Virus record (IMG/VR): IMGVR_UViG_3300006846_000001
Span: 37,314 to 101,313 of that record
Direction: 5' to 3' (one strand)
DNA length: 64,000 bases
Origin: a virus
Taxonomy: Duplodnaviria; Caudoviricetes
Part shown: positions 7,287 through 25,406 of the stretch, one piece after another
Layout: every line of letters begins with the position of its first letter
Position numbering within the stretch: position 1 is the first letter of the stretch
Notes under the pieces: model-generated
What the model saw: only the letters and a program-made list of their open reading frames with translations
Database searches by the model: none
What the model was told of the DNA's origin: nothing
Program-made: the position numbers and the translations under genes

Positions 7287-8105
7287 CTACCAATCCCAGA
7301 AGGACGCGTGGTGTTTGCGGATGCGCTCAGCGAGGGAGTAGGGCACGACGTGGCGGAAGCCGTGCGCCTCGCCCGTCACGATGTGGCAGATGGGGGCGAT
7401 GACCTCAGCGGGATCAGTAGCACCGCGAAGGTGCGGGTCGTCAGAGGCCGGCCCGGGCTCGTCGAGGGGGTTGCGGTGGCGCAAGTCCCGGGCGGCGATG
7501 GCGGCCCGGTCGAAGCCCGTGTCCAGGAGGCCGGGGTTGATGACGGCCACGCTGATGCCCTGGTCGATACGCTCGACGTGGATGGTCTCGGCGATGCCCT
7601 CGATGGCCCGCTTGGACGCGGCGTAGGCGCCCATCTGCTCCACGGGGATGAGGCCCGAGATGCTCGACATGAACACCAGGCGGCCCCGGGGAGCGTCGCG
7701 GCTCCCGTCGCGCCGGGCGAGGAAGGTGGGCAGGACGGCCCGGGTCAGGGCGTAGGTCCCGAAGACGTTCACGTCGAAGACCTCCCGCATGAGGCTGACG
7801 GGCACGCTCCCGAGGACGCCAGCCTCGATGATCCCGGCGTTGTTGAAGAGGACGTCGACGCGGTGCTGCTCGGCCAGGAGGCCGGCCTGGTTGATGTCAT
7901 CGGTGCGGGTCAAGTCGAGCCGGAAGGGCCGCACATCAAGGGGGCCGGCGTCATGCAACTCGGCCATGTCCAGGAGGTCAGTGACCTGGGGGCGGATCTG
8001 GCAACCGGCGAGGACGGTGTGGCCCAGGGCGCCCAGGGCCAGGGCCACCAAGCGGCCCAGGCCGGATCCGGCGCCGGTCATGAGGATCGTCTTGTGATCG
8101 GTCAC
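7287..8105 (-). CDS. Short-chain dehydrogenase/reductase (SDR)
   Basis: TGAGSGLG, NNAG, SS, YAASK and NPG motifs. Confidence 0.9.
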   Translation of the reverse strand: MTDHKTILMTGAGSGLGRLVALALGALGHTVLAGCQIRPQVTDLLDMAELHDAGPLDVRPFRLDLTRTDDINQAGLLAEQHRVDVLFNNAGIIEAGVLGSVPVSLMREVFDVNVFGTYALTRAVLPTFLARRDGSRDAPRGRLVFMSSISGLIPVEQMGAYAASKRAIEGIAETIHVERIDQGISVAVINPGLLDTGFDRAAIAARDLRHRNPLDEPGPASDDPHLRGATDPAEVIAPICHIVTGEAHGFRHVVPYSLAERIRKHHASFWDW

Positions 8106-9751
8106 GCTGCCTCCATGGCCTGTACGACGCGGCCGACGATCCATTGCATCTTGGGGTGCGGGACGGCGTTGCCGGCGAGTTTGATCTGGTGCTTCTTCGG
8201 GAGGTCGGTGGGGATGTAGCCCGGGGGGAATGCTTGGAAGCCGGCGATCTCGGGGGGTTCCAGCATCCGGTATAGGCAGGCGTCAATGGCCTCCTCGAGG
8301 GTGGCCCGGTCCCGTGGGGTGAGGAGGGCCCACGCGTCCTTCGTGAGGATGGTGCCCACCGGGCCGTCCGTGGGTAGGGCCAGGCCGGTCCGGTTGTAGG
8401 GCAGGAGGAGGCTCTGGGCGGCCGTGCTCGTCAAGGTGCGGGCCGGCTCGTCGACGGAGGTGACCATCTCGGCGCCGCCGCGGTTGTTGCGCATGAGGAG
8501 GGCGTGGCGGTTCCCGGAGGTGGTGATGGTCCCGATGGGCTGGTCGGTGGAGCGCGCCGTGTTGTGGGGGTTGTTGGCGATGACCAGCCCGTCAGGTGGC
8601 GGCCCGAGGAGGGCGTGGTGGGTTCCGCCTGCCGTCACGGTGGGTGCTGGGCCGGATGTGGGCCATGCTCGGCCGTTGTTGCGCGACGGGATGATCATCG
8701 GTTCCAGGAGCGCGGGCCGGTCGTCTGACGCGGCGACGGTCCACATGGGCTCCTGCACGCTGCGGGTGCGGCAGTTGTCTGAGCCGCCGTGGTGGGACTG
8801 GACGAGGTAGGGATGCGGCTCCACGAGGGCGTGGGTGGCCGTGGTCGACACGACGGTCAGCGGCTCTGATACGGGGTGGGAGCGGTTGCCGGGGGTGCGC
8901 TCATGAACGTGCCCGGCGCCGGCCGTGACGAGGGGCACCCACCCGTGTTTCACGAGGCCGGCGGCTACCCGAAAGCGGGTGTTGGGGACGAGGGCTTTCT
9001 TGCGGCCGCCGATGGGCTCGGATGGGAGGCGGAAGTCGATCACGTCAGTGGCGGGGCGCACGGGGGGCTCAGCGGGCTTGCCGCAGCGGATGCACGCCCA
9101 GAACCACTGTTGGCGGTAGCGGCCTACCGTCCGGCCGTTCTTCCAGGCTTGGCGCACGGTGGTGGCCACGTCGCAGCGGGGGCAGTGGGCGGGGAGCTCC
9201 AGCTCCAGGTTGGGGCGGAGGCCCGGCCGCCAGAAGACCATGTAGACCCGGTCCCGGCTCTGGGGGATGCCGAAGTGCATGGCGTTGTGGGAGAGGATGG
9301 CGTGCTCGTAGCCGAGGTCCTTCATGGCCTGGAGCCACGACGGGAACAGGACCCAGCGGGTCACCTCCACCACGTTCTCCACGATGACGGCCGCGTAGAT
9401 CATCTGCTCAGCGAAGCGCACGACGTCCCACATCGTGGCCCGGGAGCGTTCGGCGGCCGGGTCGGGGGCGTCCCACAGGGTGGGGTCCTGACGCCGGCGT
9501 GAGACGCCGCGGGCTTGGGAGTGGTTCACGCATTCGGGTGACGCGATGAGGATGTCGGTCCTGGGCCAGCGGCGGGGGTCGACGCCGGAGATGTCGGCCA
9601 GGTCGTGGGCGGCGTTGGGGAAGTTGGCCTGGTGAACGTCGATGGCCACCTCCCAGTGGTTGGCGGCCATCACCAGCTCGACGCCGGCGCCGGAGGCTCC
9701 CAGGCTGGAGCCTCCGGCGCCGCAGAACATGTCGGTGGCCGTGATCGTCAC
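8102..9751 (-). CDS. DNA (cytosine-5) methyltransferase
   Basis: Motif I FCGAGG, IV SPEC, VI ENV, VIII QSRDRVY, X AGNAV. Confidence 0.92.
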   Translation of the reverse strand: MTITATDMFCGAGGSSLGASGAGVELVMAANHWEVAIDVHQANFPNAAHDLADISGVDPRRWPRTDILIASPECVNHSQARGVSRRRQDPTLWDAPDPAAERSRATMWDVVRFAEQMIYAAVIVENVVEVTRWVLFPSWLQAMKDLGYEHAILSHNAMHFGIPQSRDRVYMVFWRPGLRPNLELELPAHCPRCDVATTVRQAWKNGRTVGRYRQQWFWACIRCGKPAEPPVRPATDVIDFRLPSEPIGGRKKALVPNTRFRVAAGLVKHGWVPLVTAGAGHVHERTPGNRSHPVSEPLTVVSTTATHALVEPHPYLVQSHHGGSDNCRTRSVQEPMWTVAASDDRPALLEPMIIPSRNNGRAWPTSGPAPTVTAGGTHHALLGPPPDGLVIANNPHNTARSTDQPIGTITTSGNRHALLMRNNRGGAEMVTSVDEPARTLTSTAAQSLLLPYNRTGLALPTDGPVGTILTKDAWALLTPRDRATLEEAIDACLYRMLEPPEIAGFQAFPPGYIPTDLPKKHQIKLAGNAVPHPKMQWIVGRVVQAMEAA

Positions 9752-13993: not shown

Positions 13994-14184
13994 CCCTCGT
14001 CCTCCATCATCCGGTTGAGGTTGGGCATGGCTCTCCTAGGGGTTGGGGTGGTGGTTGGAGAACGGGCCGGCCGCCGCCCGGCCCTGAGCACGAGGCCATG
14101 TGGGCGGCGGCCGGTCGCACCGCGAGGAGTCCCGGTGCGAGGGTGGGAGGCCCCAGCCGGCAGCAGGCCGGGGCCTCCCATGAG

Positions 14185-15372
14185 CTACGCAGCGGCGGCG
14201 GCCAACTCCAGCGATCGCACAGCGTCAGCCTCCATGGCGTGGGCCGTGTCGGCGTTGAGTTGCTGCTGTGCCGCGGCGGTGACGGCGTGCATCACGCCAC
14301 CGGCGGTGCGGACGCCGCCGTCCATGAACATGGAGAAGACGGATTCGCGCTGGGCGTCGGTGTAGAGGAGGCTCTTGGCCACGTGCTCGATGACGGCGGC
14401 CGGCTCATCGACGGGCGTGCCGGCCAACTCGTTCAGCTCGGCGACCTTGCGCTTCACGTACTCGGCGTCGAGGAAGGTGCGGACGACGTCGGTGGTCTCG
14501 GCCTTGACGAGGGCCAGGTAGGCGATCTGCGTCTCGCGGCTGGGCTCGACGATGCCGGTGTCGGGCTTGCCGCCGCCGAGGTGGACCTTGCGGAACACGT
14601 CGCGCGTCATGGTCATGCCGTTGCCGCAAATCTGGACGGTGAGCTGGGGCGTCAGGGTGTAGGCGCCGCCGCCCGTCTCGCTGTTCGTCAGGACGAACCC
14701 GGCGAAGACGGTGGGGTTCTCGTCGCCCGTCTGGCCGCTGTAGGGCGACCGGTATCCGGCGAGTAGCTCGGGGGCGGCGATGGCCACGGAGGGGGCCTGG
14801 ATCTTGACGTACATGCGCGACTCGGTGAGGTCGCACTGCCCGACTTGGACCTCCAGCCCGGAGGACTGGACGGCGTCGAGGGCGGTGACGAGGACGTCGA
14901 GGTGGTCGATGATGCCGTAGCCCTGGGATAGGACGGCCCGGAGGATGCCCTTGCCCTCGTCGCCGCGGAAGGTCCGCAGGAGCCAGGGCTTCGTGAGGGG
15001 GTCGCCGCCCTCGGTGTAGCCGGCGCACCAGCCGTTCGCTGCGGCGCCTAGGGGGCTGCGGCCGTGCAACATGCCATTGACGGCCACATCGAAGATGTCG
15101 GGGCGCTGGTCGCGGAGGGCCCGCAGGTAGGGGGCGGGGGTGTTGATGCGCTCGGCGAGGCCGCCGATGGCCGTGTCGGTGATGACGTAGGTCCCGTCGG
15201 CCATGGTCACCCCGTCGGCGGTGATCTGCGGGTCGACGCCGGTGATCGTCAGGTTGCCCTCGTGGGCGGCGATGAGGCCGCCGTGGGCTATGACGTCGAC
15301 CTTGCGGGTGTGCTGCTCCTGGAGGAGTTGACTCAGCTCTGCCAGGCCCTGGTTGCGGAGGTCGGTGTGCAT
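14185..15372 (-). CDS. DUF932/DUF945-like phage/plasmid protein
   Basis: RAVLSQGYGIIDH, GFVLTNSETGGGA, ICGNGM and H motifs; SD GAAGGGGA; palindrome promoter upstream. Confidence 0.7.
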   Translation of the reverse strand: MHTDLRNQGLAELSQLLQEQHTRKVDVIAHGGLIAAHEGNLTITGVDPQITADGVTMADGTYVITDTAIGGLAERINTPAPYLRALRDQRPDIFDVAVNGMLHGRSPLGAAANGWCAGYTEGGDPLTKPWLLRTFRGDEGKGILRAVLSQGYGIIDHLDVLVTALDAVQSSGLEVQVGQCDLTESRMYVKIQAPSVAIAAPELLAGYRSPYSGQTGDENPTVFAGFVLTNSETGGGAYTLTPQLTVQICGNGMTMTRDVFRKVHLGGGKPDTGIVEPSRETQIAYLALVKAETTDVVRTFLDAEYVKRKVAELNELAGTPVDEPAAVIEHVAKSLLYTDAQRESVFSMFMDGGVRTAGGVMHAVTAAAQQQLNADTAHAMEADAVRSLELAAAAA

Positions 15373-15427
15373 GCTCAGATTCCCCTTCTCGAGGCCCCGG
15401 GTGGGGTCCGGGGCCGCTGCGGGGAAC

Positions 15428-15441
15428 CTTACCCGGGTTAG
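15428..15441 (-). promoter_or_regulatory. Palindrome variant CTTACCCGGGTTAG
   Basis: -10 TAAGGT and -35-like CTAGAC at the same spacing as the other copies. Confidence 0.8.
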
Positions 15442-15451
15442 TGCGGGGTGT

Positions 15452-16561
15452 CTAGGCGTTGCGGAGGTACTCGCCGGTGGTGCGGGCGATGGCCTCGTTG
15501 ATGGCCTCGACGTCGCCCTGGCTCCAGCCCTTGTCGGGGTAGGCGGGGCCGGTGCGGGCCATCTGCACGGCGATCTCTAGGGTTGCCTGGGTGGCGGCGC
15601 TCGCGGCCAGTTCCTTGGACATGGCGCGGGGGTGGGGGATGTGCACGGCCAGCCACGGCGTCGGGGTGTGGTTGATGAGGTCGTGGCCGATGACGGCGCA
15701 GCGATGCACGGGCACCTCGGCGCGGGCGACGGCATGCGTCACGGTCTCGCCGGCCAGGAGGACGACCCGGCCCCCGATGTTGGGCAGGATGCGGTGGACG
15801 GCGAACTCCTGCCACGTGACGGTGCTGACGCGGGACCAGTCGGCGATGGGCTCGGGGGAGAGGTTGATGGTGTCGAGGGCGTCAAGGAGCCGCCCGGGCC
15901 CCAGGCGCAGGTACTGCTCCAGGCGCTCGCCTCCCACGGTGCCTATGAAGGGCGCAGCGTCGGCCAGCTCCGGGCGGGGGGCGAGGCCCACGAGGAGGGG
16001 CTTGCGGAGGCCGGCGTCGGCGGGGGCGTGGCGGCAGCCGGTCGCGGCCAGCTCTGCTGCGGTGCCGGTGGGGGAGCCGGGGCACACGAGGCAGCGCATG
16101 CGCCCGAGGTCCGCGGCGACGGCGCTGTACTCGGTGAGGGCGGCGCGGTCCGCTGCGCTGATGTCGCGGTGGGGTGCGCCCACGGCGAGGATCACATGCG
16201 GCGAGTCGGGGCGGGCGGACACGGCGTGGGGCACGGCGCCCTCGACCATGTAGACCTGCCCGGCCTCGGTGGGGTAGATGGTGCCCTCCACGGTGATGGT
16301 GCCGTAGCCGCCCACGACGATCAGGAGGTGGTCGCCGGGGTGGGTGTGGGGGGCGAAGCCCTTGCCGGGAGGCACTGAGATCAGGTCGACGCCCAGGAAG
16401 CCGTTGCCCACGAGGGTGCGGCCCGTCGCCTCGGTGCCGTACATGGGTTGGGGGCCGGGACCGAGGCGGACTTGGACGGTGGACCGGTCAGCGTCCTGGC
16501 CGGTGTGCTCGGCCCACTGGGCGAGGATCAGGGACCCGTCGTCGTGCTGGTACGTCATCAC
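15452..16561 (-). CDS. Cupin domain fused to uracil-DNA-glycosylase-superfamily domain
   Basis: N-term FAPHTHPGDH...GAVPHAV (cupin His motifs); linker CLVC...CRH; C-term LLVGLAP, PFIG..GERL, TIN, VVLLAG, IPHP (UDG-like). Confidence 0.65.
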   Translation of the reverse strand: MMTYQHDDGSLILAQWAEHTGQDADRSTVQVRLGPGPQPMYGTEATGRTLVGNGFLGVDLISVPPGKGFAPHTHPGDHLLIVVGGYGTITVEGTIYPTEAGQVYMVEGAVPHAVSARPDSPHVILAVGAPHRDISAADRAALTEYSAVAADLGRMRCLVCPGSPTGTAAELAATGCRHAPADAGLRKPLLVGLAPRPELADAAPFIGTVGGERLEQYLRLGPGRLLDALDTINLSPEPIADWSRVSTVTWQEFAVHRILPNIGGRVVLLAGETVTHAVARAEVPVHRCAVIGHDLINHTPTPWLAVHIPHPRAMSKELAASAATQATLEIAVQMARTGPAYPDKGWSQGDVEAINEAIARTTGEYLRNA

Positions 16562-17178
16562 ATGCTCCAGATGAGATGGGCCTCGTCGGCTTCTAGGAGG
16601 CGGCCGGCGGGCAGCGGCGCCGAGGACACGGCCGCGTAGTCGCGGGTCACCTCGGCGTACAGGGGGTGGGCCGCTACCCTAACGCCCGTTACCCTCCCGG
16701 CGTACAGCCCGTCCGCGTCTGCCCAGATGAGGGCCTGTGGCGCACGGCATGCCAGTTGCAGGAGGGCGAAGCGGGCGCCCGGTGGGCGGTCCTGGCGGGC
16801 CAGGATGCGGAGGATGGCCTCCGAGTCGATGGTCACCTTGGCGGGGTCCTGGCCGAGGTCGGTGATGCACTCGGCGGTGAGGGTCCCGTTGTGGGCGAAG
16901 GCGACGCCGGCGTCGACCAGGGGCTGGCCCTCGTCAGGGTCGGGGGCGTCGCCGGGCCGGCGGGTGGAGGTGGCGAGGCGGGAGTGTCCAATTGCTATTG
17001 GACCGGGGGCGGGGGCGTCCTGTGCGGTGAGGCGCCCGGGGCGGCGGGTGACGGTCCAGCCTCCGGGGGCGGGGGTGGCCCAGCCGTGGGAGTGCGGGCC
17101 TCGGGCGGCGGCCCCGATGATGGCCGTTGCTCGGACCTCGGGGGGCACCTCTCCGGCGAGGGCTACGAGGCCGCACAT
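16558..17178 (-). CDS. Class II (Ntn) glutamine amidotransferase
   Basis: N-terminal MCG, RGPHSHG, GHSRLAT, QP, AHNG, DSE. Confidence 0.85.
   Translation of the reverse strand: MCGLVALAGEVPPEVRATAIIGAAARGPHSHGWATPAPGGWTVTRRPGRLTAQDAPAPGPIAIGHSRLATSTRRPGDAPDPDEGQPLVDAGVAFAHNGTLTAECITDLGQDPAKVTIDSEAILRILARQDRPPGARFALLQLACRAPQALIWADADGLYAGRVTGVRVAAHPLYAEVTRDYAAVSSAPLPAGRLLEADEAHLIWSM
16679..16692 (-). promoter_or_regulatory. Intragenic palindrome variant CTAACGCCCGTTAC
   Basis: Overlaps -10 TAGGGT; coincides with rare codons GTA/GTT/AGG in the GATase gene; upstream of the cupin-UDG gene. Confidence 0.5.
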
Positions 17179-17969
17179 CGCAGGGCCTCAGCGGCGCCGG
17201 GGATGCCGGCGGTGGCGGCGAGCTCGGCGACGCCGGCGTCGATGCTGGCGACCTCACGCCAGCCGTGGGCGCGGTCGCGTGTCCACTGGCGGGCGGGCCA
17301 CGCTCCCGTTCCGACGCGGAAGCCGCGGGGCCAGCCGTAGCAGGGGGGCAGCGGCGCGCGGTGCGCGCCGAGGACGCAGAGGAGGTCCTCGTGGGACCAG
17401 CCGGCGATGGGCGAGATCCTGTCGAAGCCGGCGCGGTCGCGGTAGCGGCCGCCGCCGGTGTGGTTCCCATCGGCGGTGCGGCGCCCGAGGACCAGAGCGT
17501 CGATGCCGGCCTGTCGGGCGTAGGCGCGTTGGCCGGTGTGCTGAACGAGGCGGAACCACCGGGCCGCCGTCTTGGCGTCTGCGGGGAAGAGCATGTCGGG
17601 GTTGCGGGCCAGCCACGCCAGGTCGAGGGGCCGGGCCTCCACGGTGCAGCCCCATGGCATGTGGTCGGTGGCCCAGGTGAGGAAGGCGGGGTACTCCAGC
17701 TCGGAGATGACCAGGACGCACTCGGTGATGCCGGCCGCCTCACAGACGATGCGTAGGCCCTGGGAGTCCTTGCCGCCCGACCAGCCGTAGGCGACGTGGT
17801 AGCCCTCCGTCGCCTGGCGCAACCAGGCGACGGCGGCCTCCACGAGGCGGCGGGCCCGGGGGACGTCGGGGTGCTGGTAGGCGTCGCGGACGGCGCCTAC
17901 CCAGTCGGCCTGGGTGGAGCGTTGCTTCTGGGGGATCACGTGGCGCGGGTCTTGGGGGCGGGGCGCCAC
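17163..17969 (-). CDS. PAPS-reductase-like PP-loop protein
   Basis: GWSGGKDS PP-loop, LGRRTADG, SPIAGWS. Confidence 0.8.
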   Translation of the reverse strand: MAPRPQDPRHVIPQKQRSTQADWVGAVRDAYQHPDVPRARRLVEAAVAWLRQATEGYHVAYGWSGGKDSQGLRIVCEAAGITECVLVISELEYPAFLTWATDHMPWGCTVEARPLDLAWLARNPDMLFPADAKTAARWFRLVQHTGQRAYARQAGIDALVLGRRTADGNHTGGGRYRDRAGFDRISPIAGWSHEDLLCVLGAHRAPLPPCYGWPRGFRVGTGAWPARQWTRDRAHGWREVASIDAGVAELAATAGIPGAAEALRCAAS

Positions 17970-18484
17970 GCCTGCCCGAAGCCCTCGGGGCTGGAGCCAC
18001 GCTCCAGCATGTTGCCGCGCTGGAGGAGGCGCTTCACCTCCTCGGCGTCCATGCCCAGCCGGCGGCGGACCTCGTCAGTGTCCATGCCCGACTCGACGAG
18101 GGTGGCCACGATGTCGGCCATCTTCACGACGTGGTGGGTGCCACGGGCTCGGTTGTGGCGCACGGTGGAGAGGCGCCGCTCGGCCTCGTCCTTGTCGATG
18201 GGGACGATGGGCACGTACCCCTCGGTGAGCTTCCACACGTCGGGGTCATCCGAGGTCAGCCACCGGTGGTAGCCGTCGACGACCTCGAAGTGATCGGCGA
18301 TGGTGTCGTGGGGGCCGGCCACGATGGGCTGCGTCCACCCGTCCTCGAGGATGCTGGTTCGGAGGAGCTTCAACTCGGGGGGTGCCACGTGGTTGGGATT
18401 CCAGGCGTTGGCGTGGAGGCGCTCACGCTCGACCCACATGACGTTGCTGATGGGCTGGAGGGGGCGGCCGATGGGGGCGGTCAC
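17936..18484 (-). CDS. ibrB: ParB/Srx-like protein, IbrB/YbdM family
   Basis: LHANAWNPNHVAPPELKLLRTSILEDGWTQPIV, VVDGYHR, STVRHNRARGTH. Confidence 0.8.
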   Translation of the reverse strand: MTAPIGRPLQPISNVMWVERERLHANAWNPNHVAPPELKLLRTSILEDGWTQPIVAGPHDTIADHFEVVDGYHRWLTSDDPDVWKLTEGYVPIVPIDKDEAERRLSTVRHNRARGTHHVVKMADIVATLVESGMDTDEVRRRLGMDAEEVKRLLQRGNMLERGSSPEGFGQAWRPAPKTRAT

Positions 18485-19716
18485 TCGATGTCTCCGTTCG
18501 CGCGGGACGCCTCGACGTCCTCCCGGTAGGCGGCCCAGCCGGCGGGGGTGTTGAGGTGGGGCTGGGCTTGCATGATCTCGTTGCGGTCTTTGAGGTCACC
18601 GCGCAGAGCGATGGTCGCCACCCACTCCCAGGAGACGCCGGTGTAGGGGTGGCGGGCCTTGCCGGGAATGGGGTCGGTCGTCTTGGAGTAGTGGTTGCGG
18701 ATGATGCGACGGCACTTGTGGGCGACGAAGCGGCGCACGGCCGGCTCGGTGTGGTCCTCCACGAGGGTCCGCACGAAGGTCTGCCACGTCATGCCGTCGG
18801 GCTTGGAGGGCGCGTCGCCGTAGGCGAACAACTCCGTCCGCGAGTAGCGGGCCCCGCAGGCTGCGCCGGGGACCCGGTACACCATCCGTGACCACAGGTC
18901 CGGGAAGCACGCGGCCCACTGGTCGAGGTCCCGGGCGGGCTGCTCACCGAAGGGCGGCGCTATGCGCTGCTGGGAGGGGGAGAAGCCGTGCATGGATAGG
19001 AGGTCGTAGCTGCGGTTGTAGTCCCATCCGAGGGTGGCCGGCGCCGTCCACACGTCGGCCGCCGTCCAGTCGTAGACGGGATACACCTTGTAGTAGGCGG
19101 GGTTGTCGCTGGGCATCACGAAGTTGTCGGGGCGCTTGTTCGACACGGCCTTGCGGCGGATGATGGACTCGTCGGCCCGGATGCCCATGAGGGCGCAGCT
19201 CGTCCCGTACCGGTCGTGCGGTGACACCAGGTGCGTCATCGTGTCGGGGATGGACATGCGAGCGTCGGGCGGCTCGACGGGGAAGCCGTCGAGCTCGGTG
19301 ATGGCCTCCGGGGGCAGGGGCCACACCCACCGGTCGCGGGCCTCCGGTGCCCATGGCCACCAGTGCGGCTCATCCATGGAGCAGGCGTTGCGGTGCTTCA
19401 CCGGGAGGCAGAACCACTCCAGCCCGACCTCAGGCAGCTCGGCCACGCGGCGGGTGTACTCGATCGTCAGGTCGCTGATGCACTCCTCGTCGAAGAACAC
19501 GACGCGCAGGGGCAGGCGGTCCAACTCGGCGGCCACGGCGAGGGCCACGTTCAGGACGGCGGTGGAGTCCTTGCCCCCGGAGAAGCTGACGAAGACGTGG
19601 TCGAAGCGGGTGTAGGCGTAGCGGGTCCGTTCGAGGGCCGCCTCCCATACGGATTGCCCGGTGCGCTCGCGGCCCCACCAGCCCGTCGCCTCGGGGACGG
19701 CGGGAGTGGCCGTCAT
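18481..19716 (-). CDS. ibrA: PAPS-reductase-family protein, IbrA/YbdN (DUF3440) type
   Basis: V.EAALER, SFSGGKDS, FFDEE, CLP...RNACS, GIRADES..R, YPVYDW...DVW, YN..YD, QRIAPPFG. Confidence 0.82.
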   Translation of the reverse strand: MTATPAVPEATGWWGRERTGQSVWEAALERTRYAYTRFDHVFVSFSGGKDSTAVLNVALAVAAELDRLPLRVVFFDEECISDLTIEYTRRVAELPEVGLEWFCLPVKHRNACSMDEPHWWPWAPEARDRWVWPLPPEAITELDGFPVEPPDARMSIPDTMTHLVSPHDRYGTSCALMGIRADESIIRRKAVSNKRPDNFVMPSDNPAYYKVYPVYDWTAADVWTAPATLGWDYNRSYDLLSMHGFSPSQQRIAPPFGEQPARDLDQWAACFPDLWSRMVYRVPGAACGARYSRTELFAYGDAPSKPDGMTWQTFVRTLVEDHTEPAVRRFVAHKCRRIIRNHYSKTTDPIPGKARHPYTGVSWEWVATIALRGDLKDRNEIMQAQPHLNTPAGWAAYREDVEASRANGDIE

Positions 19717-20432
19717 GCCGTGAGGCCGCGGAGGATCTCGAGGAGCGTCTCGACGAGGGTGTCCTTGTTCCGGGCCCCGGCCTGCTGGCGCAGGATGAGG
19801 ATGGCCTCGTCGCGTTGGGCCTGCGTCATGGCCAGCCGGAAGTCCACGACGTCGGTTCCGGTGCGGGCCGTGTCCCGGGCCGGCGCAGCGTCACCATCGA
19901 CGGGGGGCAGGTCCTCCAGGTCGGCGAGGAAGCCGGCTTCCTGGTCGCCGAGGATGCCAGCCTCCTGGATGAGGGCCCGATACTCCTCATCGTCAAAGCC
20001 GGCGCCCAGGGCGAAGCCGGCGACGTCCTGCTCGTAGCGGGCGAGCATCTGGGCCAGCTCGTCGGGCTTCCAGCCGCCCCGCTCGGGGGAGCGGTTGGAG
20101 ACGATCAGGTACTTGTCGGCCTGCTCGTCGCTATCACTGGCCCAGCCGTGCACGACGGGCATCGTCCACCGGCCGTCCTTGTCGACCACGATGCCCTCGG
20201 GGGGGTCGCCACCGGCCGCCTCTTGGCGGATGAGGGACTCGAGGCGGCCGTGCCCCACGACGAGGCGGCCGGTGCGCTGATCCAGGAGGCTGGGCTCGAC
20301 GAACCCGAACTCCTGGATCTTGTCGTCGAGGAAGTCGTCGTCGTGGCCCTTGGGGTTGGCGAGGGCGGGCGTCACCTGGTCGAGGCGGTGGTACTCGATC
20401 CAGCGGGGAGGGTTGGGGGCGGTGGCGGCCAT
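19713..20432 (-). CDS. ParB-like N-terminal domain protein
   Basis: NPKGH, IQEFGFVEP, LVVGHGRLE, SNR...GGW: the type usually linked to phage DNA-modification genes. Confidence 0.75.
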   Translation of the reverse strand: MAATAPNPPRWIEYHRLDQVTPALANPKGHDDDFLDDKIQEFGFVEPSLLDQRTGRLVVGHGRLESLIRQEAAGGDPPEGIVVDKDGRWTMPVVHGWASDSDEQADKYLIVSNRSPERGGWKPDELAQMLARYEQDVAGFALGAGFDDEEYRALIQEAGILGDQEAGFLADLEDLPPVDGDAAPARDTARTGTDVVDFRLAMTQAQRDEAILILRQQAGARNKDTLVETLLEILRGLTA

Positions 20433-20442
20433 GCCCGGAATC

Positions 20443-20456
20443 CTAAGCGGTGTAAC
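20443..20456 (-). promoter_or_regulatory. Degenerate palindrome/leaderless promoter of the ParB-IbrAB operon
   Basis: CTAAGCGGTGTAAC at the same 10-nt offset from ATG; -10 TAGGAT. Confidence 0.55.
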
Positions 20457-20471
20457 TGCCCGGAAGCCCGG

Positions 20472-20688
20472 TACGCGCAGCTCCCCCGGGGGAGGCTCTT
20501 CCCACAGATACCCACCCGGGGGCGCTGCTAGTGCGGAGGTCTACTTCACCGACGATCCAGGTTCCGGTGTGCGCCACGACCGGAGACGTCCCCGCGGCGC
20601 GAGGCCAGCCTACGCGCTGGCGCTCCCGCAGCCCGGAGGCCACGGGAGCGCCACCCCGTCCGGTAACGGTCTCGGGCGGGGCTGCGGC
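20472..20688. ncRNA. Candidate structured non-coding RNA/DNA element
   Basis: Intergenic; five hairpins found by eye, three enclosed by a closing stem (see findings). Confidence 0.45.
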
Positions 20689-20689
20689 C

Positions 20690-21097
20690 TCACTCGCCGG
20701 GCAGGGCTACCCGTGCGATGGTGTCGCAGACCAGCTCCGTCATGCGCAGCGCGTCGGGGAGGGTGACGCCCCCATCGGTGCGGTCATTGAGGGCAAGCGC
20801 GATCTTGCGGCGGTGGTGGGGCAGCACGAGGTCGGAGACCTCATCGATGTCATCGAGGCCAGGCATGTGCCCCAGGTCCTTCTCCTGCTCCCGGAGCAGC
20901 TCGACGTACCGGAGGCCGAAGCGGTGCCGGTAGCGGTCCCTCTGGTCCCGTGTCAGGTCCGGGCCCCACGTCCCCAGGGCCATGGCCAGAAGGGCCCGCT
21001 CGTGGCGAGCGAGGCGCCTGAGGCGGCGCATGACGCGCTGCCACACCTCGTCGTCGGCGGGGACGGTGGCACCGTAGGGGCGGGCGGCGGCGCTCAT
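20690..21097 (-). CDS. Hypothetical protein
   Basis: ORF track, ATGA overlap. Confidence 0.55.
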   Translation of the reverse strand: MSAAARPYGATVPADDEVWQRVMRRLRRLARHERALLAMALGTWGPDLTRDQRDRYRHRFGLRYVELLREQEKDLGHMPGLDDIDEVSDLVLPHHRRKIALALNDRTDGGVTLPDALRMTELVCDTIARVALPGE

Positions 21098-21606
21098 CGG
21101 GGGAACCCGGCGAAGGGATCGTCATCGGCGGGGGCGGGCGGGGCGGCCGGGGGTTGCCCGGCCAGCTCGGCGATGAGGTGCTGCGCCCGCACGTCATCGG
21201 CCAGCTTGTCGGTAGCCAGCCAGCAGGAGCCGCCCGAGGCCCGACTCGACTCCAGGTCCACGAACGAGGCGACGAAGCGGACGAGGTCGGCGTCACGCTC
21301 CAGGCGGCGCAGGACGCCCGCCGCGTGCTTGCAGCAGGCCCGGCCGTTGGAGCGGTGGGTGTCGCCGTGATCGTCGACTCGGCCGCCGCCCTGGGGCTGG
21401 CAGCGAGTGAAGACGGGGCGGCCGGCGCCTCGGTGGGCGATGACCGTGACGCGGTACGTCTTGTCCCGCTCAGTGTCTGAGTGGATGAGGCAGTGCCACC
21501 CCTCGGCGTCGTGGCGAAGCCAGGTGTGATGGCCCTCCTCGACGAAGCGAACCTCAGCGTCCACGTTGGTGTCTCCGGTGGCGGGAGTGACGGTGTCGGT
21601 GCTCAT
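21094..21606 (-). CDS. SWIM-zinc-finger-like protein, leaderless cassette gene
   Basis: TYRV...C...CCKH; ATGAGCAC start. Confidence 0.5.
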   Translation of the reverse strand: MSTDTVTPATGDTNVDAEVRFVEEGHHTWLRHDAEGWHCLIHSDTERDKTYRVTVIAHRGAGRPVFTRCQPQGGGRVDDHGDTHRSNGRACCKHAAGVLRRLERDADLVRFVASFVDLESSRASGGSCWLATDKLADDVRAQHLIAELAGQPPAAPPAPADDDPFAGFPR

Positions 21607-21616
21607 GCCTCCGATC

Positions 21617-21630
21617 CTAACCGGGGTTAG
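21617..21630 (-). promoter_or_regulatory. Palindrome variant CTAACCGGGGTTAG
   Basis: -10 TAGGAT, -35-like CTAGAC; 10 nt to ATG. Confidence 0.85.
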
Positions 21631-21656
21631 CGTCGTCGTCTAGTGGGTGGCGCGAT

Positions 21657-21687
21657 GAGGCCCCCGCCCGGGGTGGGCGGGGGCCTC
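21657..21687 (-). terminator. GC hairpin terminator
   Basis: GAGGCCCCCGCCC/GGGCGGGGGCCTC 13-bp stem just after the stop at 21699. Confidence 0.65.
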
Positions 21688-21698
21688 TGGGTTGGGGA

Positions 21699-22610
21699 TC
21701 AGGCCGGGGCCTTCCAGCCCACCTGCTCGGCGAACTTCATGAGCCACTCGTTGAGCTTGCAGGCGGCCTTGTCGCCGTCCTTGCACAGCGGGGCCAGGCC
21801 GGTGAGGAGGGCCCGCACCCCGTCAGCGTCCACGTCGACCCGCTTGGCCTCGGCGGCCACGGCGGCCCGCAGGGCCTTGATGGAGCCGGCGGCGTCCTCG
21901 GGGAGGGCGGCCAGCATGACGGTCCGGCGGACGGGCGAGAGGTTCAGGTCGGTGACCCGGCCCTCCGGTGCCCGGCTCTTGCGGGTGCGCTTGGCGGTGG
22001 TGGGCTGGTCTGCGGTCATGTTGGACGAGTCCACCATGCCGATGGGACCCTGCGCCACGCCCAGGCCCATGGGGTTGGCCGGATCGATGGGAGCGGTGCC
22101 GGGCTTGCGACCCTCCACCTCGGCGGCTTTGTCGGCGGCCTCTGCGGCCTTCTCCGCCTCGATGGCATCGAGGTTGGGGGTAGCGGGCCGGTCGCCCTTC
22201 TCGCCGCCCTCGGTCCACGCCTTGAGGGCGCGGGCCTCGGCGGTGGCCTTGACGACGCGGGGACCGCGCTTGGCCTCGGCCTGGGGCGCCTCAGGGGCGT
22301 CATCAGCCTCGGGGGCGTCGGCCGCCTCGATCTCGTCGACCTCGGCCAGCACATCAGCGGGGATGGGATCGGCCTCAGGGGCCTCCGACTCACCGGTGTC
22401 GGCGATGGTGAGGACGGCCTTGATCCGGCGGGTGGGGGCGCCGCCCGACTTCTTGGCCGGGCACTTGCCGCACTCGACGGTCTGGCCCATGAGGTTGTCG
22501 GCGGTGGGCTTACCCTCGGCCTGCTCGATGTCGATGACGTGCCGGCAGGACAGGCGGACCGTGACGGTGGGGGCGGTGCTGGCGGCGGGGGTGTTGGTGT
22601 CTGTGCTCAT
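21699..22610 (-). CDS. Hypothetical protein with N-terminal Zn ribbon, leaderless cassette gene
   Basis: LSCRH...CGKC; Ala/Glu-rich; ATGAGCAC start. Confidence 0.7.
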   Translation of the reverse strand: MSTDTNTPAASTAPTVTVRLSCRHVIDIEQAEGKPTADNLMGQTVECGKCPAKKSGGAPTRRIKAVLTIADTGESEAPEADPIPADVLAEVDEIEAADAPEADDAPEAPQAEAKRGPRVVKATAEARALKAWTEGGEKGDRPATPNLDAIEAEKAAEAADKAAEVEGRKPGTAPIDPANPMGLGVAQGPIGMVDSSNMTADQPTTAKRTRKSRAPEGRVTDLNLSPVRRTVMLAALPEDAAGSIKALRAAVAAEAKRVDVDADGVRALLTGLAPLCKDGDKAACKLNEWLMKFAEQVGWKAPA

Positions 22611-22620
22611 GCCGATGACA

Positions 22621-22647
22621 CTAACCCGGGTTAGCGGCGTCGGTCAA
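22621..22647 (-). promoter_or_regulatory. Palindrome CTAACCCGGGTTAG with -35 TTGACC
   Basis: TTGACC-N18-TAGTGT-N7-ATG on the minus strand. Confidence 0.9.
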
Positions 22648-25406
22648 GCCGGGACGTCGGATTCCCTGGTCGCGGCCTCGGGTTGTGGCGGTGAGCTGGG
22701 CTTTGGTTTGGATGATCGGCGCCGCTCGGCGAGGGCGGTGATGGCGTCGGAGAGGTCGCCGGCCGTCTTGTACTTGCCGACGTCCTTGAGCTTCCAGCGC
22801 TTCGCCGCGTCGAGTTGGCGGGGACTGGGCTTGCGCTTGCGCCACCCAGCGTCGGAGCTGGTGAGGCGGGTGTCGCCGTGTAGGCGGGCGTAGTCCTCGC
22901 CGACGCCCTGGCACGTCTCGAGGTCCACGTCGCGGATGAGGGTGCGGGCGCCTTGGGTGGGGTGCTGGTCCTGGACGGCCCACGACTCGTCGCTGTTGGG
23001 GTCGAGTTGGACCATGACGAGGCGGGATGCGCCCTGCCTGCCCAGGGGCAGCACGTAGCGGAGGCGGTCGTCGTTGCGGCGGGGGGCCGTGACCCAGGCC
23101 AGGCCGTCGCCGCGGAGGCGCTTGAAGAGGTCGGCGGCCTCGGCGCGGAGGCGGCCGGCGGCGATCTCAGCCTCTTCGTGCTGGGCGACCAGCACGGACA
23201 CGGGCGCCTCGCCGGTCGTGGCGCGGCGGGCCAGCTTGGCCGGGAGGCCGAAGAGGCTGGGCACGGTGATGAGGCTGTTCTCGCGGGAGGCGCCCACCAC
23301 GTCGAGGACGAGGCAGTCGACCTTGTCAGGGTGCTTGCGGGTGCCGCGGCCGATCATCTGGGTGTAGAGGCCCGACGATTTGGTGGGCCGCCCGATGACG
23401 ATGCAGTCAGTGCGGGGCGCGTCGAAGCCCTCCGTCAGGACCATGCAATTGGTGACGACGTCCACCTCGTGGCGCCGGTACCGGTCCAGGAGGTTGCGCC
23501 GCTCGGTGGGCGGCGTCTTGTCCGAGACGCAGCCGGCCCGGAGGCCGACTTGGCGGCAGGCGTCGGCCGTCTGCTCGGCCGTCTCCACAGTGGGAAGGAA
23601 GGCCAGGGTCAGGCGGTGGGGGGCGTACTCGCGGATGGCCTGGGCGATCGTCCAGGGGGCGCCGGCGTCCTGGAGGGCCCGGCCGGTGTCGCCGGCCTGG
23701 TAGTCCCCGCGGCTCACCTTGACCTTGCCCAGGTCGAGGTCATCGAGGATGACGCGCTGGCCTCGCACGTCGGAGAGGTAGCCGGCGCGGATGCCCCACA
23801 GGATGTCGTAGGTGAAGGCGACCTCATCGAAGACGCCGTCGAGGCCCTGCCCGTCACCGCGTTGGGGGGTGGCGGTGGTGCCGTAGAGGATGGGGCCGCC
23901 GGGCTGGCCGACGCCGCACCAGTCAAAGATGCGCCGGTAGCTCGCGGCGGCGGCGTGGTGCGCCTCATCCACGATGACGAGGCCGAAGGGCCGGCCAGCC
24001 GTCGGATCGGGACCGACGCCGGGCTGCCACTCTGGGCACAGGCGGGCGAGGCGGCGGCGGTTGGCGAGGGTCTGCACGGACCCGACGATCACGTCGGCGT
24101 GCACGCCGTTCTCTGGGCCTTTGACGATGCCGAGGCTGGGCACATCGGGCCACGAGTTGAGGATGCTCTTGACGGCCTGGCGGATCAGCTCGTCGCGGTG
24201 GGCGAGGATCAGGGTGCGCAGCCCCAGCCGCTCGGCCAGCGCGCAGAAGATGACCGTGTTGTGGGTGACGACGTACCCGCGGGTGACGAAGAGGCCGTCG
24301 GGGTTGGCGACCTTGATGCAGACCATCTCGGCGTCGCCGGCCGGCTCGATGCCGGTGATGCGACGCTGGGGGTGGTACTTGGTCCGGGGCTTCCAGGCGT
24401 CGGCCTTGCGCTTCCAGCGGAAGGGGCAGATATCCATGGCGATGGAGAGTCGCCAGGCGGTGCCCTGGTGCTGTTCACCGTTGTAGGTCCAGGTGGTGCG
24501 TTTGTACCTGAGGCGGGCTGTGCCGCCGAGGCTACGGACGAGGTGGGCGGTGTCCTGTGCCAGTTGATGGTTGGCGAGCGTGAGCTCGATGTGACCGTCG
24601 CTAGGTCGCACGTGGCCGTCAGCGTCCATGATGCCGCGGAGGAGGTTGAGCCGGTCCGCTGCGGGGGCGAACTTGTAGAGGTCGGGAACAGCCTTGCTCG
24701 TCGCTCGGCTTCCTTCTAGTCCTAGGACGCGGATGGCGGACAGGATGGGGTTGTCGCCACGGCCGGTGGGTCCTCCGATTATCCAGGTCCCGGCTCCGCC
24801 GCCGCAGTCAGCGAGGCGCTTCCATCGGCAGGGCGCTGGTAAGTCGATGGTCTCGACTAGCTCATCCTCGGTGTGCACCAGGACGCGGCCGGGGACGGAG
24901 AGGCCGCCGTCGCCTAGGAGCACGCCTAGGAGGTACGGGTCGAGGGGCAACGTCACGGCGCTGTGCTGGACTGGTGCTACGAGCGGGGTCTCCCAGCGGT
25001 GGCCGGCTCCTTCTCGGAGGCCAACGTCGAGGAGCTGCTGAGTCGTGAGTGTCCGCCATGGGCGGCCACGGAGGCGGTCGTGTTTGGTGCGGACGGCCCA
25101 GAGGTGGTCGGCGTCACAGACGACTTGCTGCCCCTCGGTGAAGTGCACGCGGTAGGCAGGACGGATGCCCTGGGGGAAGACACCTTCAACCGTGGTTGGA
25201 AGGCCGTCGCCGCCGATGACCTGGTCGCCGGGGGTGAGTCTGCCGATCGGGGTCCAGCCGGTAGGGGTGAGGACAGGCTCGTCAGCGGCGAGGGCTTTCC
25301 CGAGGCCGGTGGCGGCTACGCCCAGTAGACGGCGGACGCCCTCGCCGAGTCGGGCATCGACTCGGGCGAGGGCGTCCTGCTGGTAGGGCCTGGGGGTCAG
25401 GCGCAT
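22644..25406 (-). CDS. Superfamily 2 DEAH helicase containing an intein
   Basis: RPYQ, ATGLGK|T, DEAHH, TATP.R, LTEGFD, QMIGRG.R. Confidence 0.92.
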   Translation of the reverse strand: MRLTPRPYQQDALARVDARLGEGVRRLLGVAATGLGKALAADEPVLTPTGWTPIGRLTPGDQVIGGDGLPTTVEGVFPQGIRPAYRVHFTEGQQVVCDADHLWAVRTKHDRLRGRPWRTLTTQQLLDVGLREGAGHRWETPLVAPVQHSAVTLPLDPYLLGVLLGDGGLSVPGRVLVHTEDELVETIDLPAPCRWKRLADCGGGAGTWIIGGPTGRGDNPILSAIRVLGLEGSRATSKAVPDLYKFAPAADRLNLLRGIMDADGHVRPSDGHIELTLANHQLAQDTAHLVRSLGGTARLRYKRTTWTYNGEQHQGTAWRLSIAMDICPFRWKRKADAWKPRTKYHPQRRITGIEPAGDAEMVCIKVANPDGLFVTRGYVVTHNTVIFCALAERLGLRTLILAHRDELIRQAVKSILNSWPDVPSLGIVKGPENGVHADVIVGSVQTLANRRRLARLCPEWQPGVGPDPTAGRPFGLVIVDEAHHAAAASYRRIFDWCGVGQPGGPILYGTTATPQRGDGQGLDGVFDEVAFTYDILWGIRAGYLSDVRGQRVILDDLDLGKVKVSRGDYQAGDTGRALQDAGAPWTIAQAIREYAPHRLTLAFLPTVETAEQTADACRQVGLRAGCVSDKTPPTERRNLLDRYRRHEVDVVTNCMVLTEGFDAPRTDCIVIGRPTKSSGLYTQMIGRGTRKHPDKVDCLVLDVVGASRENSLITVPSLFGLPAKLARRATTGEAPVSVLVAQHEEAEIAAGRLRAEAADLFKRLRGDGLAWVTAPRRNDDRLRYVLPLGRQGASRLVMVQLDPNSDESWAVQDQHPTQGARTLIRDVDLETCQGVGEDYARLHGDTRLTSSDAGWRKRKPSPRQLDAAKRWKLKDVGKYKTAGDLSDAITALAERRRSSKPKPSSPPQPEAATRESDVPA
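24258..25295 (-). mobile_element. Class 3 (Ala1, WCT) intein with LAGLIDADG homing endonuclease
   Basis: Splits Walker A; starts ALAADEPVLTPTGW, ends VVTHN|T; LLGVLLGDG and LLRGIMDADG motifs. Confidence 0.88.

Follow-up and report, generated by a model that had tools for sequence, protein, structure and literature searches.

The operon and its gene products

The 64,000-nt window analysed here, bases 37314-101313 of the 101,313-bp IMG/VR virus record IMGVR_UViG_3300006846_000001 (direct terminal repeats, completeness rated 100%), carries nearly all of its genes on the minus strand, and among them an operon of six co-directional open reading frames (ORFs), g1 to g6, which encode two ParB/Srx-fold proteins, two PP-loop proteins resembling 3'-phosphoadenosine-5'-phosphosulfate (PAPS) reductase, a glutaminase and a cupin fused to a uracil-DNA glycosylase (UDG)-like domain. 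The genes lie on the minus strand at 19713-20432 (g1, 239 aa), 18481-19716 (g2, 411 aa), 17936-18484 (g3, 182 aa), 17163-17969 (g4, 268 aa), 16558-17178 (g5, 206 aa) and 15452-16561 (g6, 369 aa), exactly where the original prediction, made from the sequence alone, had placed them. Successive junctions overlap by 4, 4, 34, 16 and 4 nt, and the GC content at third codon positions (0.87-0.95) matches that of the remaining genes of the genome (GC approximately 0.70-0.75 along the whole window, 71% for the genome), so that the set of overlapping coding genes is confirmed as a real six-gene operon. The family names proposed earlier for all six products agree with the Pfam and PHROG matches, the conserved motifs and the structure comparisons described below. 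Megablast against 50,697 GenBank phage records returned no near-identical DNA.

The product of g6 comprises a cupin (residues 1-183; 16013..16561, minus strand) of the sulfonamide-synthase family to which SbzM of altemicidin and SB-203208 biosynthesis belongs, a domain with a UDG-superfamily fold (residues 184-340; 15542..16012, minus strand) and, encoded 3' of the latter, a C-terminal helix (15455-15541, minus strand). The cupin, which matches Pfam Cupin_2 with an E-value of 6.5e-11, carries the motif H72-T-H74-P-G-D77-H78...H112 and a C157xxC160...C176xH178 knuckle, and the residues H72, H74, H78, H112, C157, C160, C176 and H178 are invariant in the alignment of 26 cupin-UDG fusions (A1). 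When the A1 profile was compared with the PDB, SbzM (9ug7) was matched with an E-value of 1.9e-59 over profile positions 10-180; Foldseek (1.8e-14, 45-47% identity) and VIA (Z 19.6, root-mean-square deviation 3.1, 154 aligned residues, 49% identity) also led to 9ug7, the identity amounting to 45-49% over approximately 165 residues. SbzM converts L-cysteine and O2, through a sulfonate-enamine, to 2-sulfamoylacetaldehyde, which is then oxidized by SbzJ (PMC6331615). The reaction is known for SbzM only, and by its membership of this family the g6 cupin is predicted to be a cysteine-using enzyme that oxidizes sulfur to S(VI). Being of the SbzM type, it provides the operon with a putative enzyme that uses cysteine. 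The metal motif HxHPGxH...H and the C-terminal CxxC...CxH are common to both proteins; in contrast with SbzM, the phage cupin is fused to a UDG fold and reads HTHPGDH where 9ug7 has HTHPGHH. The identity of this residue was considered as a marker separating phage cupins from those of biosynthetic clusters and was discarded, both residues being common in bacteria (35 Asp versus 31 His, counted with a scan pattern that itself favoured Asp).

The assignment of the second domain of g6 comes from structure comparison, VIA aligning residues 184-340 with the UDG of Thermotoga maritima (1l9g; Z 11.3, root-mean-square deviation 3.1, 142 aligned residues), with UdgX (6ail; Z 10.8) and with the Thermus thermophilus enzyme (2d3y; Z 9.8). 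Pfam UDG (PF03167) matches 10 of the 26 members of the g6 family, the best with an E-value of 3.9e-8, and the segments GLAP, PF..G..G..L, DT.NLS and IPHP were read by eye and may correspond to UDG motifs A and B. In UDG families 4 and 5, four cysteines of the glycosylase domain bind an iron-sulfur cluster; A1 contains no invariant or nearly invariant cysteine after residue 178. A further likeness of the g6 model (residues 183-365; Z 9.9) is to the UDG-like domain of the family-A DNA polymerase of phage phiLo (9qhs), a structure solved 'with modified template' and thus another phage use of the UDG fold beside modified DNA.

IbrA, the product of g2 (18481..19716, minus strand), combines an N-terminal PP-loop domain, with the fold of PAPS reductase, flavin mononucleotide (FMN) adenylyltransferase and CysD, with a helical DUF3440 region. 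Both parts are recognized by Pfam (PAPS_reduct, PF01507, 1.6e-9, 38.5 bits versus a cut-off of 22.5; DUF3440, PF11922, 3.3e-12, 47 bits versus a cut-off of 25), and the protein matches phrog_2302 at 4.3e-82. Its AlphaFold model (mean predicted local distance difference test score, pLDDT, 87.9) was matched by Foldseek to PAPS reductase, human flavin adenine dinucleotide synthase, adenosine 5'-phosphosulfate (APS) reductase, CysD and TtuA with E-values of 3e-6 to 1e-4, and also to FMN adenylyltransferase; these matches span approximately 230 columns of the N-terminal part, and the helical C-terminal half has no counterpart among the Foldseek matches listed. Among 26-70 homologues SGGKDS, D76-E77-E78, R180, E183, S184 and R187 are invariant and C103 and H108 nearly so, and a four-cysteine cluster is absent. 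The curated models for DndC, CysD, LarE and others were missed by a wide margin: TIGR03183 (DndC) gave 3.2e-4 and 19.7 bits versus a cut-off of 290.4, the CysD subfamily model 23.5 bits versus a cut-off of 195, and no CysH model was among the matches listed. With the assimilatory APS/PAPS reductases and CysD, IbrA thus has only the fold in common. A search of the ESM Atlas with IbrA returned its own family only.

The second PP-loop protein, g4 (17163..17969, minus strand), is a small PAPS-reductase-like protein of approximately 260 aa, which has the SGGKDS motif in common with g2. The phage's own copy matches phrog_424 (6.4e-12) and no Pfam family, and many of its 590 homologues carry a precomputed PF01507 match. 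In the family alignment (A2) W63-S-G-G-K-D-S69, E92, R163-R164, D167-G-N169 and H193 are invariant and no cysteine is; sequence comparison with the PDB gave chance-level matches only. The true start is probably the GTG at 17939, since homologue N-termini fit it, and it would turn the g3/g4 junction into a GTGA overlap. A fused form was sought and met in a single protein, P0206 (PF01507 plus PF00474), which may be a merged gene call and is taken as weak evidence. Neither g2 nor g4 has a Pfam or NCBIfam match to QueC, and, judged by the curated models, the two are not ordinary APS/PAPS reductases and not DndC or QueC enzymes, in support of the original prediction.

The glutaminase g5 (16558..17178, minus strand) is a stand-alone class II, N-terminal nucleophile (Ntn) domain, with 21.3 bits to GATase_6, under the cut-off of 27, and a match to phrog_14519 at 1e-8. 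In class II glutaminases, as known from GlmS, PurF and AsnB, catalysis relies on the N-terminal cysteine, an arginine, an Asn-Gly oxyanion hole and an aspartate; the nine aligned members of the g5 family conserve without exception C2, G3, R26, G27, H65, R67, N97, G98 and D118, and a Met/Val/Leu-Cys start is found in 137 of the 150 best family representatives, which are nearly always stand-alone proteins of approximately 200 aa. A different arrangement is the natural fusion P0287 (362 aa), in which a g5-type glutaminase (residues 1-194) is joined to IbrB (residues 188-343; hidden Markov model (HMM) E-value 1.8e-59).

The g5 gene adjoins g4 in 13 of 14 loci, and structure prediction docks g5 on g4 with an interaction score (ipSAE) of 0.69, versus 0.00 for the best control. 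Of 80 solved complexes 58 attain this mark, as do 2 of 110 mismatched pairs; the figures hold only roughly here because user-made alignments served as input. At least 67% of contacts recur between runs, partner pLDDT values are at least 84, and the predicted interface sets residues 1-2, 25-29 and 97-99 of g5, and with them Cys1, R26 and N97-G98, against residues 90-118 of g4. Adjacency and predicted docking thus lend weight to the pairing of a PP-loop enzyme with an Ntn glutaminase that the original prediction had recognized. AsnB and GAT-QueC are amidotransferases of this composition, in which the glutaminase would likewise face its partner with the active site; unlike them, g4 and g5 are separate genes, the synthetase half belongs to the PAPS-reductase family, and no AsnB or QueC match was obtained in Pfam or NCBIfam.

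The remaining two proteins have the ParB/Srx fold. ParB-1, encoded by g1 (19713..20432, minus strand), is of the kind seen N-terminally in ParB-methyltransferase fusions: without a Pfam match, it matches phrog_620 (1e-18) and phrog_723 (1.4e-16), through residues 6-160 phrog_498, annotated as 'DNA methyltransferase' (2.4e-16), and the PADLOC model MTase_II (1.9e-8). It is 35-40% identical to the ParB-1 genes of metagenome contigs L002 and L156, and the ParB-1 family HMM recognizes it with an E-value of 3.7e-6 in a two-sequence search. IbrB, encoded by g3 (17936..18484, minus strand), contains DGxHR and NRARGxH motifs and matches phrog_2159 (2.4e-64) and the IbrB family HMM (7.5e-64), with 18.5 bits to Pfam ParB_N, under the cut-off of 26.3; it is 43% identical to the IbrB part of gp104 of mycobacteriophage Gaia.

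Recurrence of the module in uncultured phages

The pair formed by a PAPS_reduct plus DUF3440 protein and an adjacent ParB-like protein is that of IbrA/IbrB in E. coli and many phages, for example Gaia gp103/gp104 and IbrA/IbrB of PhiR5_2. Unlike these pairs, the phage operon adds another PAPS-reductase-like protein and another ParB, besides a glutaminase and the cupin-UDG fusion. GenBank has 223 phage records with IbrA-like genes; among the 50,697 records mentioned above g4 was matched once, by an uncultured phage, and the SbzM-like cupin not at all. The alignment of g4, when run against IMG/VR, gave at least 284 relatives, and the following neighbourhood counts refer to the best 80 loci. Within approximately 3 kb of g4, IbrA was found in 80/80 and IbrB in 79-80/80 of them. 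Clustering of neighbouring ORFs identified a g1-type ParB-1 gene in 78/80. A sodium:solute symporter gene (PF00474, 6e-20) lies directly upstream of g4 in 72 loci (for example, L072:8635-10005, with 71 further loci within L072-L151); the curated models nearest to it, PanF, PutP and ActP, all remained under their cut-offs. Terminase genes follow just downstream of the module in at least 28 loci.

The symporter and the glutamine amidotransferase (GATase) g5 are nearly exclusive of each other: 71 loci have the symporter only, six the GATase only, one has both and two have neither, one of these being cut by a contig end (Fisher p 1.7e-7, a value that ignores relatedness). The glutaminase was found on 14 contigs in all, and the symporter on none of 21 cupin-bearing contigs. 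Thus, the symporter usually occupies the place of the glutaminase and cupin of this phage, and the six-gene operon is a rare elaboration of a ParB-1/g4/IbrA/IbrB core that is present in hundreds of uncultured phages. All six genes together were found only in the window phage and on metagenome contig L156, where their order is g1-g4-g5-g2-g3-g6; contig L167 has g2-g3-g4-g5-g6; in all, subsets occur on 20 contigs besides L156, so that the set recurs, as the neighbourhood check proposed earlier was meant to establish. On the bacterial side, a sample of 401 genomes from the class to which the Streptomyces cacaoi genome (G001) belongs gave no match to the g4 family at an E-value of 1e-20, the window's own genome serving as positive control (5.4e-126); two further genomes had none either.

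The cupin has a wider distribution of its own. With g6 alone as query no match was obtained in IMG/VR, and an alignment query was required. An SbzM-like cupin is linked to core genes on 21 distinct viral or metagenomic contigs. In bacterial genomes, mostly of Streptomyces, 67 cupin loci were found, among them that of S. antioxidans, a genome named by the SbzM paper, and none adjoins IbrA, IbrB, g4, g5 or g1. Neighbouring ORFs were scanned at 8 of the bacterial loci; at 6 of these an aldehyde dehydrogenase gene adjoins the cupin, which fits an aldehyde product across the cupin family, and AMP-ligases, a carrier domain, ATP-grasp ligases, TauD or aminotransferases were also seen around these genes. 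In contrast with the sbz clusters, no aldehyde dehydrogenase of the SbzJ type, no ligase and no carrier protein is encoded by the phage. In a tree computed after removal of 19 short or duplicate rows, the cupins of sbz-type clusters form a clade of their own, and its large sister clade contains all Ibr-linked cupins, interspersed among bacterial ones; the phage cupins are therefore SbzM-like and not orthologues of the characterized SbzM. A single origin of the phage cupins was not supported, at least two and up to eight label changes being needed on the tree. Outside the actinomycetes, SbzM-like cupins were seen in Hyphomicrobiales, Roseibium, Methylocystis, Saccharibacteria and Roizmanbacteria (L005, L007, L008, L025, L029).

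A cupin is linked to IbrB also in a cultured phage: Gaia gp104 (L153:5311-6210), which stands beside the IbrA gp103, is a fusion of an ectoine-synthase-like cupin with IbrB and constitutes a second, independent cupin-IbrB link.

A putative nucleic acid-modifying pathway and its alternatives

From the gene families, folds, catalytic motifs, co-occurrence and predicted g4-g5 docking described above we infer, with a probability of roughly one half, that the operon is a phage pathway attaching a small reactive donor, or nitrogen, to nucleic acid, the likeliest target being the phage's own DNA after replication and the likely benefit an escape from restriction-type defences. IbrA and g4 would use ATP to adenylylate an oxygen of the acceptor, belonging perhaps to a carbonyl or carboxyl group of a base or to a phosphate of the backbone; such adenylylation logic is followed by CysD, FMN adenylyltransferase and DndC, their relatives by fold. 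ParB-1 and IbrB would recruit or activate the enzymes on double-stranded DNA. Glutamine hydrolysis by g5, bound to g4, may deliver ammonia into the adenylated intermediate as in asparagine synthetase, and the g6 cupin may use O2 to oxidize and decarboxylate L-cysteine, giving 2-sulfamoylacetaldehyde or a two-carbon sulfonate-enamine. The UDG fold could keep in position an abasic site or a flipped base resembling uracil or thymine, and the reactive product would thus be used at the DNA. In most related phages the donor would be imported by the sodium:solute symporter instead. That DNA is the target is hinted at by the likeness of g1 to the ParB domains of DNA methyltransferase fusions and by the location of the module, which in this phage has a helicase gene on one side and further early genes on the other, and which is found near terminase genes in the relatives mentioned above.

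Precedents for each piece of this logic may be seen in other systems. A fusion of a phage PAPS domain with Dam has been reported to confer escape from Dnd (preprint 10.1101/2021.05.05.442762), a phage thymine dioxygenase acting on double-stranded DNA requires a ParB homologue and is encoded in clusters that hold GATases (PMC13229309), and a carboxylate carried by DNA is the substrate of an ATP-dependent amide ligase (PMC12783734). The phage thymidine-hypermodification clusters with ParB-dependent 5mYOX dioxygenases resemble the present operon in combining a ParB-like activator with an oxygenase and a GATase, for joint action on replicated phage DNA (PMC13229309); however, the predicted oxygenase of g6 is a cysteine-directed cupin rather than a 2-oxoglutarate-dependent TET/JBP enzyme, no kinase and no amino-acid:DNA transferase is found among the six genes, and the genome has no ThyA-like gene. 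The 5-carboxymethylcytosine pathway of cyanophage S-B43, CmoX/CmoY, provides a precedent for forming an amide on a DNA-borne group at the expense of ATP (PMC12783734), and the present phage, too, has a C5-cytosine methylase-like gene (8102-9751), but the ligase families differ. A pathway of the CmoA/CmoX type was considered for the phage itself and set aside, its genome being without CmoA. More generally, the whole genome was found to lack Aminotran_5, tRNA-guanine transglycosylase (TGT, PF01702), ThyA, aldehyde dehydrogenase (PF00171) and sodium:solute symporter family (SSF) genes. This agrees with the absence of desulfurase and Que/Dpd genes noted earlier for the window, and a Dpd-type 7-deazaguanine pathway is further set apart by the missing QueC match of g2 and g4.

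Several considerations weigh against the DNA-modification pathway. Each of its functional steps is drawn from homology or context, and proteins with the ParB/Srx fold may instead act on small molecules, as NTPases, kinases or nucleases. The locus counts overstate the number of independent events because many of the 80 loci belong to near-identical phages of a single sample. The docking of g5 on g4 may mirror a likeness to fused glutaminase-synthetases, since structures of these have been solved. The phage's own UDG-like domain stayed below Pfam UDG at an E-value of 0.01, and a phmmer search of the PDB with this domain alone retrieved no UDG, the marginal matches to MonBI being taken as chance; the domain may be a binding module only, and it is present on 4 of the 21 cupin-bearing Ibr-linked contigs, most relatives being without it. 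Given the sister-clade position of the cupin, its product may differ from that of SbzM. IbrAB is annotated in the records as a co-activator of prophage gene expression, and the symporter together with a small-molecule cupin would fit a pathway to a soluble product about half as well as one acting on DNA.

Such a soluble-metabolite pathway, leading to a small molecule or free nucleotide such as a sulfonamide or sulfonate nucleotide analogue, an antimetabolite or a cofactor, is the alternative to be taken most seriously, with a real though minor chance of being correct. In it, the acceptor of the PP-loop adenylyltransferases would be a phosphate, sulfonate or carboxylate in solution, the ParB/Srx proteins would be NTP-using kinases or regulators, and the UDG-like domain would bind free uracil or uridine. 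The bacterial SbzM homologues do sit in small-molecule clusters, the IbrA fold relatives CysD and FMN adenylyltransferase take soluble sulfate and FMN, and g4, next to which most relatives encode a symporter, has neither a conserved cysteine nor a recognizable DNA-binding domain. The near-universal presence of two ParB-fold proteins fits this proposal poorly, however, as do the likeness of g1 to ParB domains of DNA methyltransferases, the fusion of the cupin to a DNA-glycosylase fold, the proximity of the module to replication or packaging genes and the fact that PAPS-domain::Dam fusions counter a DNA-based defence (preprint 10.1101/2021.05.05.442762). Phosphorothioation of the Dnd/Ssp kind, or an anti-Dnd device, would assign to IbrA and g4 the role of DndC/SspD, or let them jam host restriction, with IbrB as the analogue of DndB, and would draw on the common presence of a PAPS-reductase-family ATP pyrophosphatase and a ParB-fold protein in a setting of DNA conflict, on the ParB-like character of DndB (PMC10853773), on the Dnd escape obtained with a phage PAPS domain (same preprint) and on the weak DndC matches of IbrA (1.1e-6 in PADLOC, besides that to TIGR03183). 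It is improbable, because the genome has no cysteine desulfurase, DndC-type features are missing and the cupin is predicted to take sulfur to S(VI). The TIGR03183 score is a small fraction of the cut-off, one nearly invariant cysteine in IbrA and none in g4 contrast with the cysteine dyad described for DndC-type proteins (PMC12839542, PMC10853773), no DndD/E-type family or SspB/C turned up among the six genes, the SbzM reaction yields S(VI) rather than sulfide or persulfide (PMC6331615), and the glutaminase and symporter would be left unexplained.

A regulatory module, in which IbrA/IbrB and their partners would control phage or host transcription and the enzymes would make or sense a signal, is if anything slightly harder to credit: the IbrA/IbrB annotation in Escherichia phage PhiR5_2 and the ability of ParB-fold proteins to act as NTP-dependent switches (PMC13229309) agree with it, but strict catalytic motifs in two PP-loop enzymes, the glutaminase and the metal-binding cupin indicate chemistry, and an effect on transcription could follow from DNA modification. 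Least probable of all is modification of tRNA or rRNA after the manner of TilS, TtcA, TtuA or QueC. TtuA, NcsA and TilS (MesJ) do appear among the weaker Foldseek matches of IbrA, and QueC is the annotation of 25% of the members in one Atlas cluster of IbrA-like proteins; yet no curated tRNA-modifier model was approached, TGT is absent from the genome, and the partners, with their ParB and UDG folds, are of DNA-associated kinds.

If DNA modification is retained as the preferred interpretation, a more specific version of it would be that the operon installs a DNA group of a new chemical class, candidates being a two-carbon S(VI) adduct (sulfonamide or sulfonate) derived from cysteine and an amide or amidine nitrogen on the adenylylated base or backbone position. 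This version is offered tentatively and, on balance, is unlikely. Were it true, the core would be a general 'adenylylate-then-substitute' DNA modifier whose donor is imported through the symporter or made by the glutaminase and cupin, and IbrAB would gain a chemistry. The literature search found none for any IbrAB pair, and no paper on this gene combination or on sulfamoyl DNA modification, most subscription journals and supplements being outside its reach. The IbrAB pair is known; for its six-gene form, for the four-gene core with an exchangeable donor gene and for the connection to SbzM, this search met no published description. No defence-system model in PADLOC fits the operon (weak matches to DndC, BrxP and MTase_II only). 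The earlier statement that the full combination corresponds to no named system is supported, and the original interpretation as a whole is supported in part.

Hundreds of phage and prophage genomes carry annotated pairs of the IbrA/IbrB type, and the present operon offers handles on them in the form of a partner related to an enzyme of known reaction, SbzM, of a glutaminase predicted to sit on g4 and of a DNA-glycosylase fold pointing to DNA. The alternation between a constant core and a variable donor-supply gene shows which genes to co-express. Should the product be a DNA mark, phage DNA modification would gain a new class and phages a new means of evading host defences; a soluble product would be a phage-made sulfonamide-type metabolite, and either would be new.

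Intergenic features and neighbouring genes

The single leaderless promoter that the original prediction placed before g1 did not find support. A consensus scan of 14000-21800 returned no promoter-like and no terminator-like site; the gap upstream of g1 measures 257 nt, and its predicted RNA fold is not special (z -0.9). By eye, a -10-like hexamer, TAGGAT, may be recognized at 20440..20445 (minus strand), 7 nt before the ATG of g1 and with no Shine-Dalgarno sequence in between. At the other end of the operon, a GC-rich hairpin (15377..15429, minus strand; inner 8-bp stem at 15393-15415) separates g6 from the next gene. The RNA of 15373-15451 folds with -40.3 kcal/mol (z -3.25; one of 200 shuffles was equally stable), and the terminator scan missed the hairpin because a T-run is absent.

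A helicase gene (22644-25406, minus strand) encodes a 920-aa SF2 protein with ResIII and Helicase_C domains and a LAGLIDADG-type insert at approximately residues 253-305, which is probably an intein. A 549-aa C5-cytosine DNA methyltransferase-like gene lies at 8102-9751 (minus strand; PF00145, 8.6e-30), so that the phage also has a conventional DNA-modifying enzyme. The gene that follows the operon (14185-15372, minus strand) is DUF932-like (phrog_1362, 1.4e-75). A homologue is also found 3' of the cupin-UDG gene on metagenome contig L154 and, as it follows the cupin-UDG gene in both cases, it may travel with the module.

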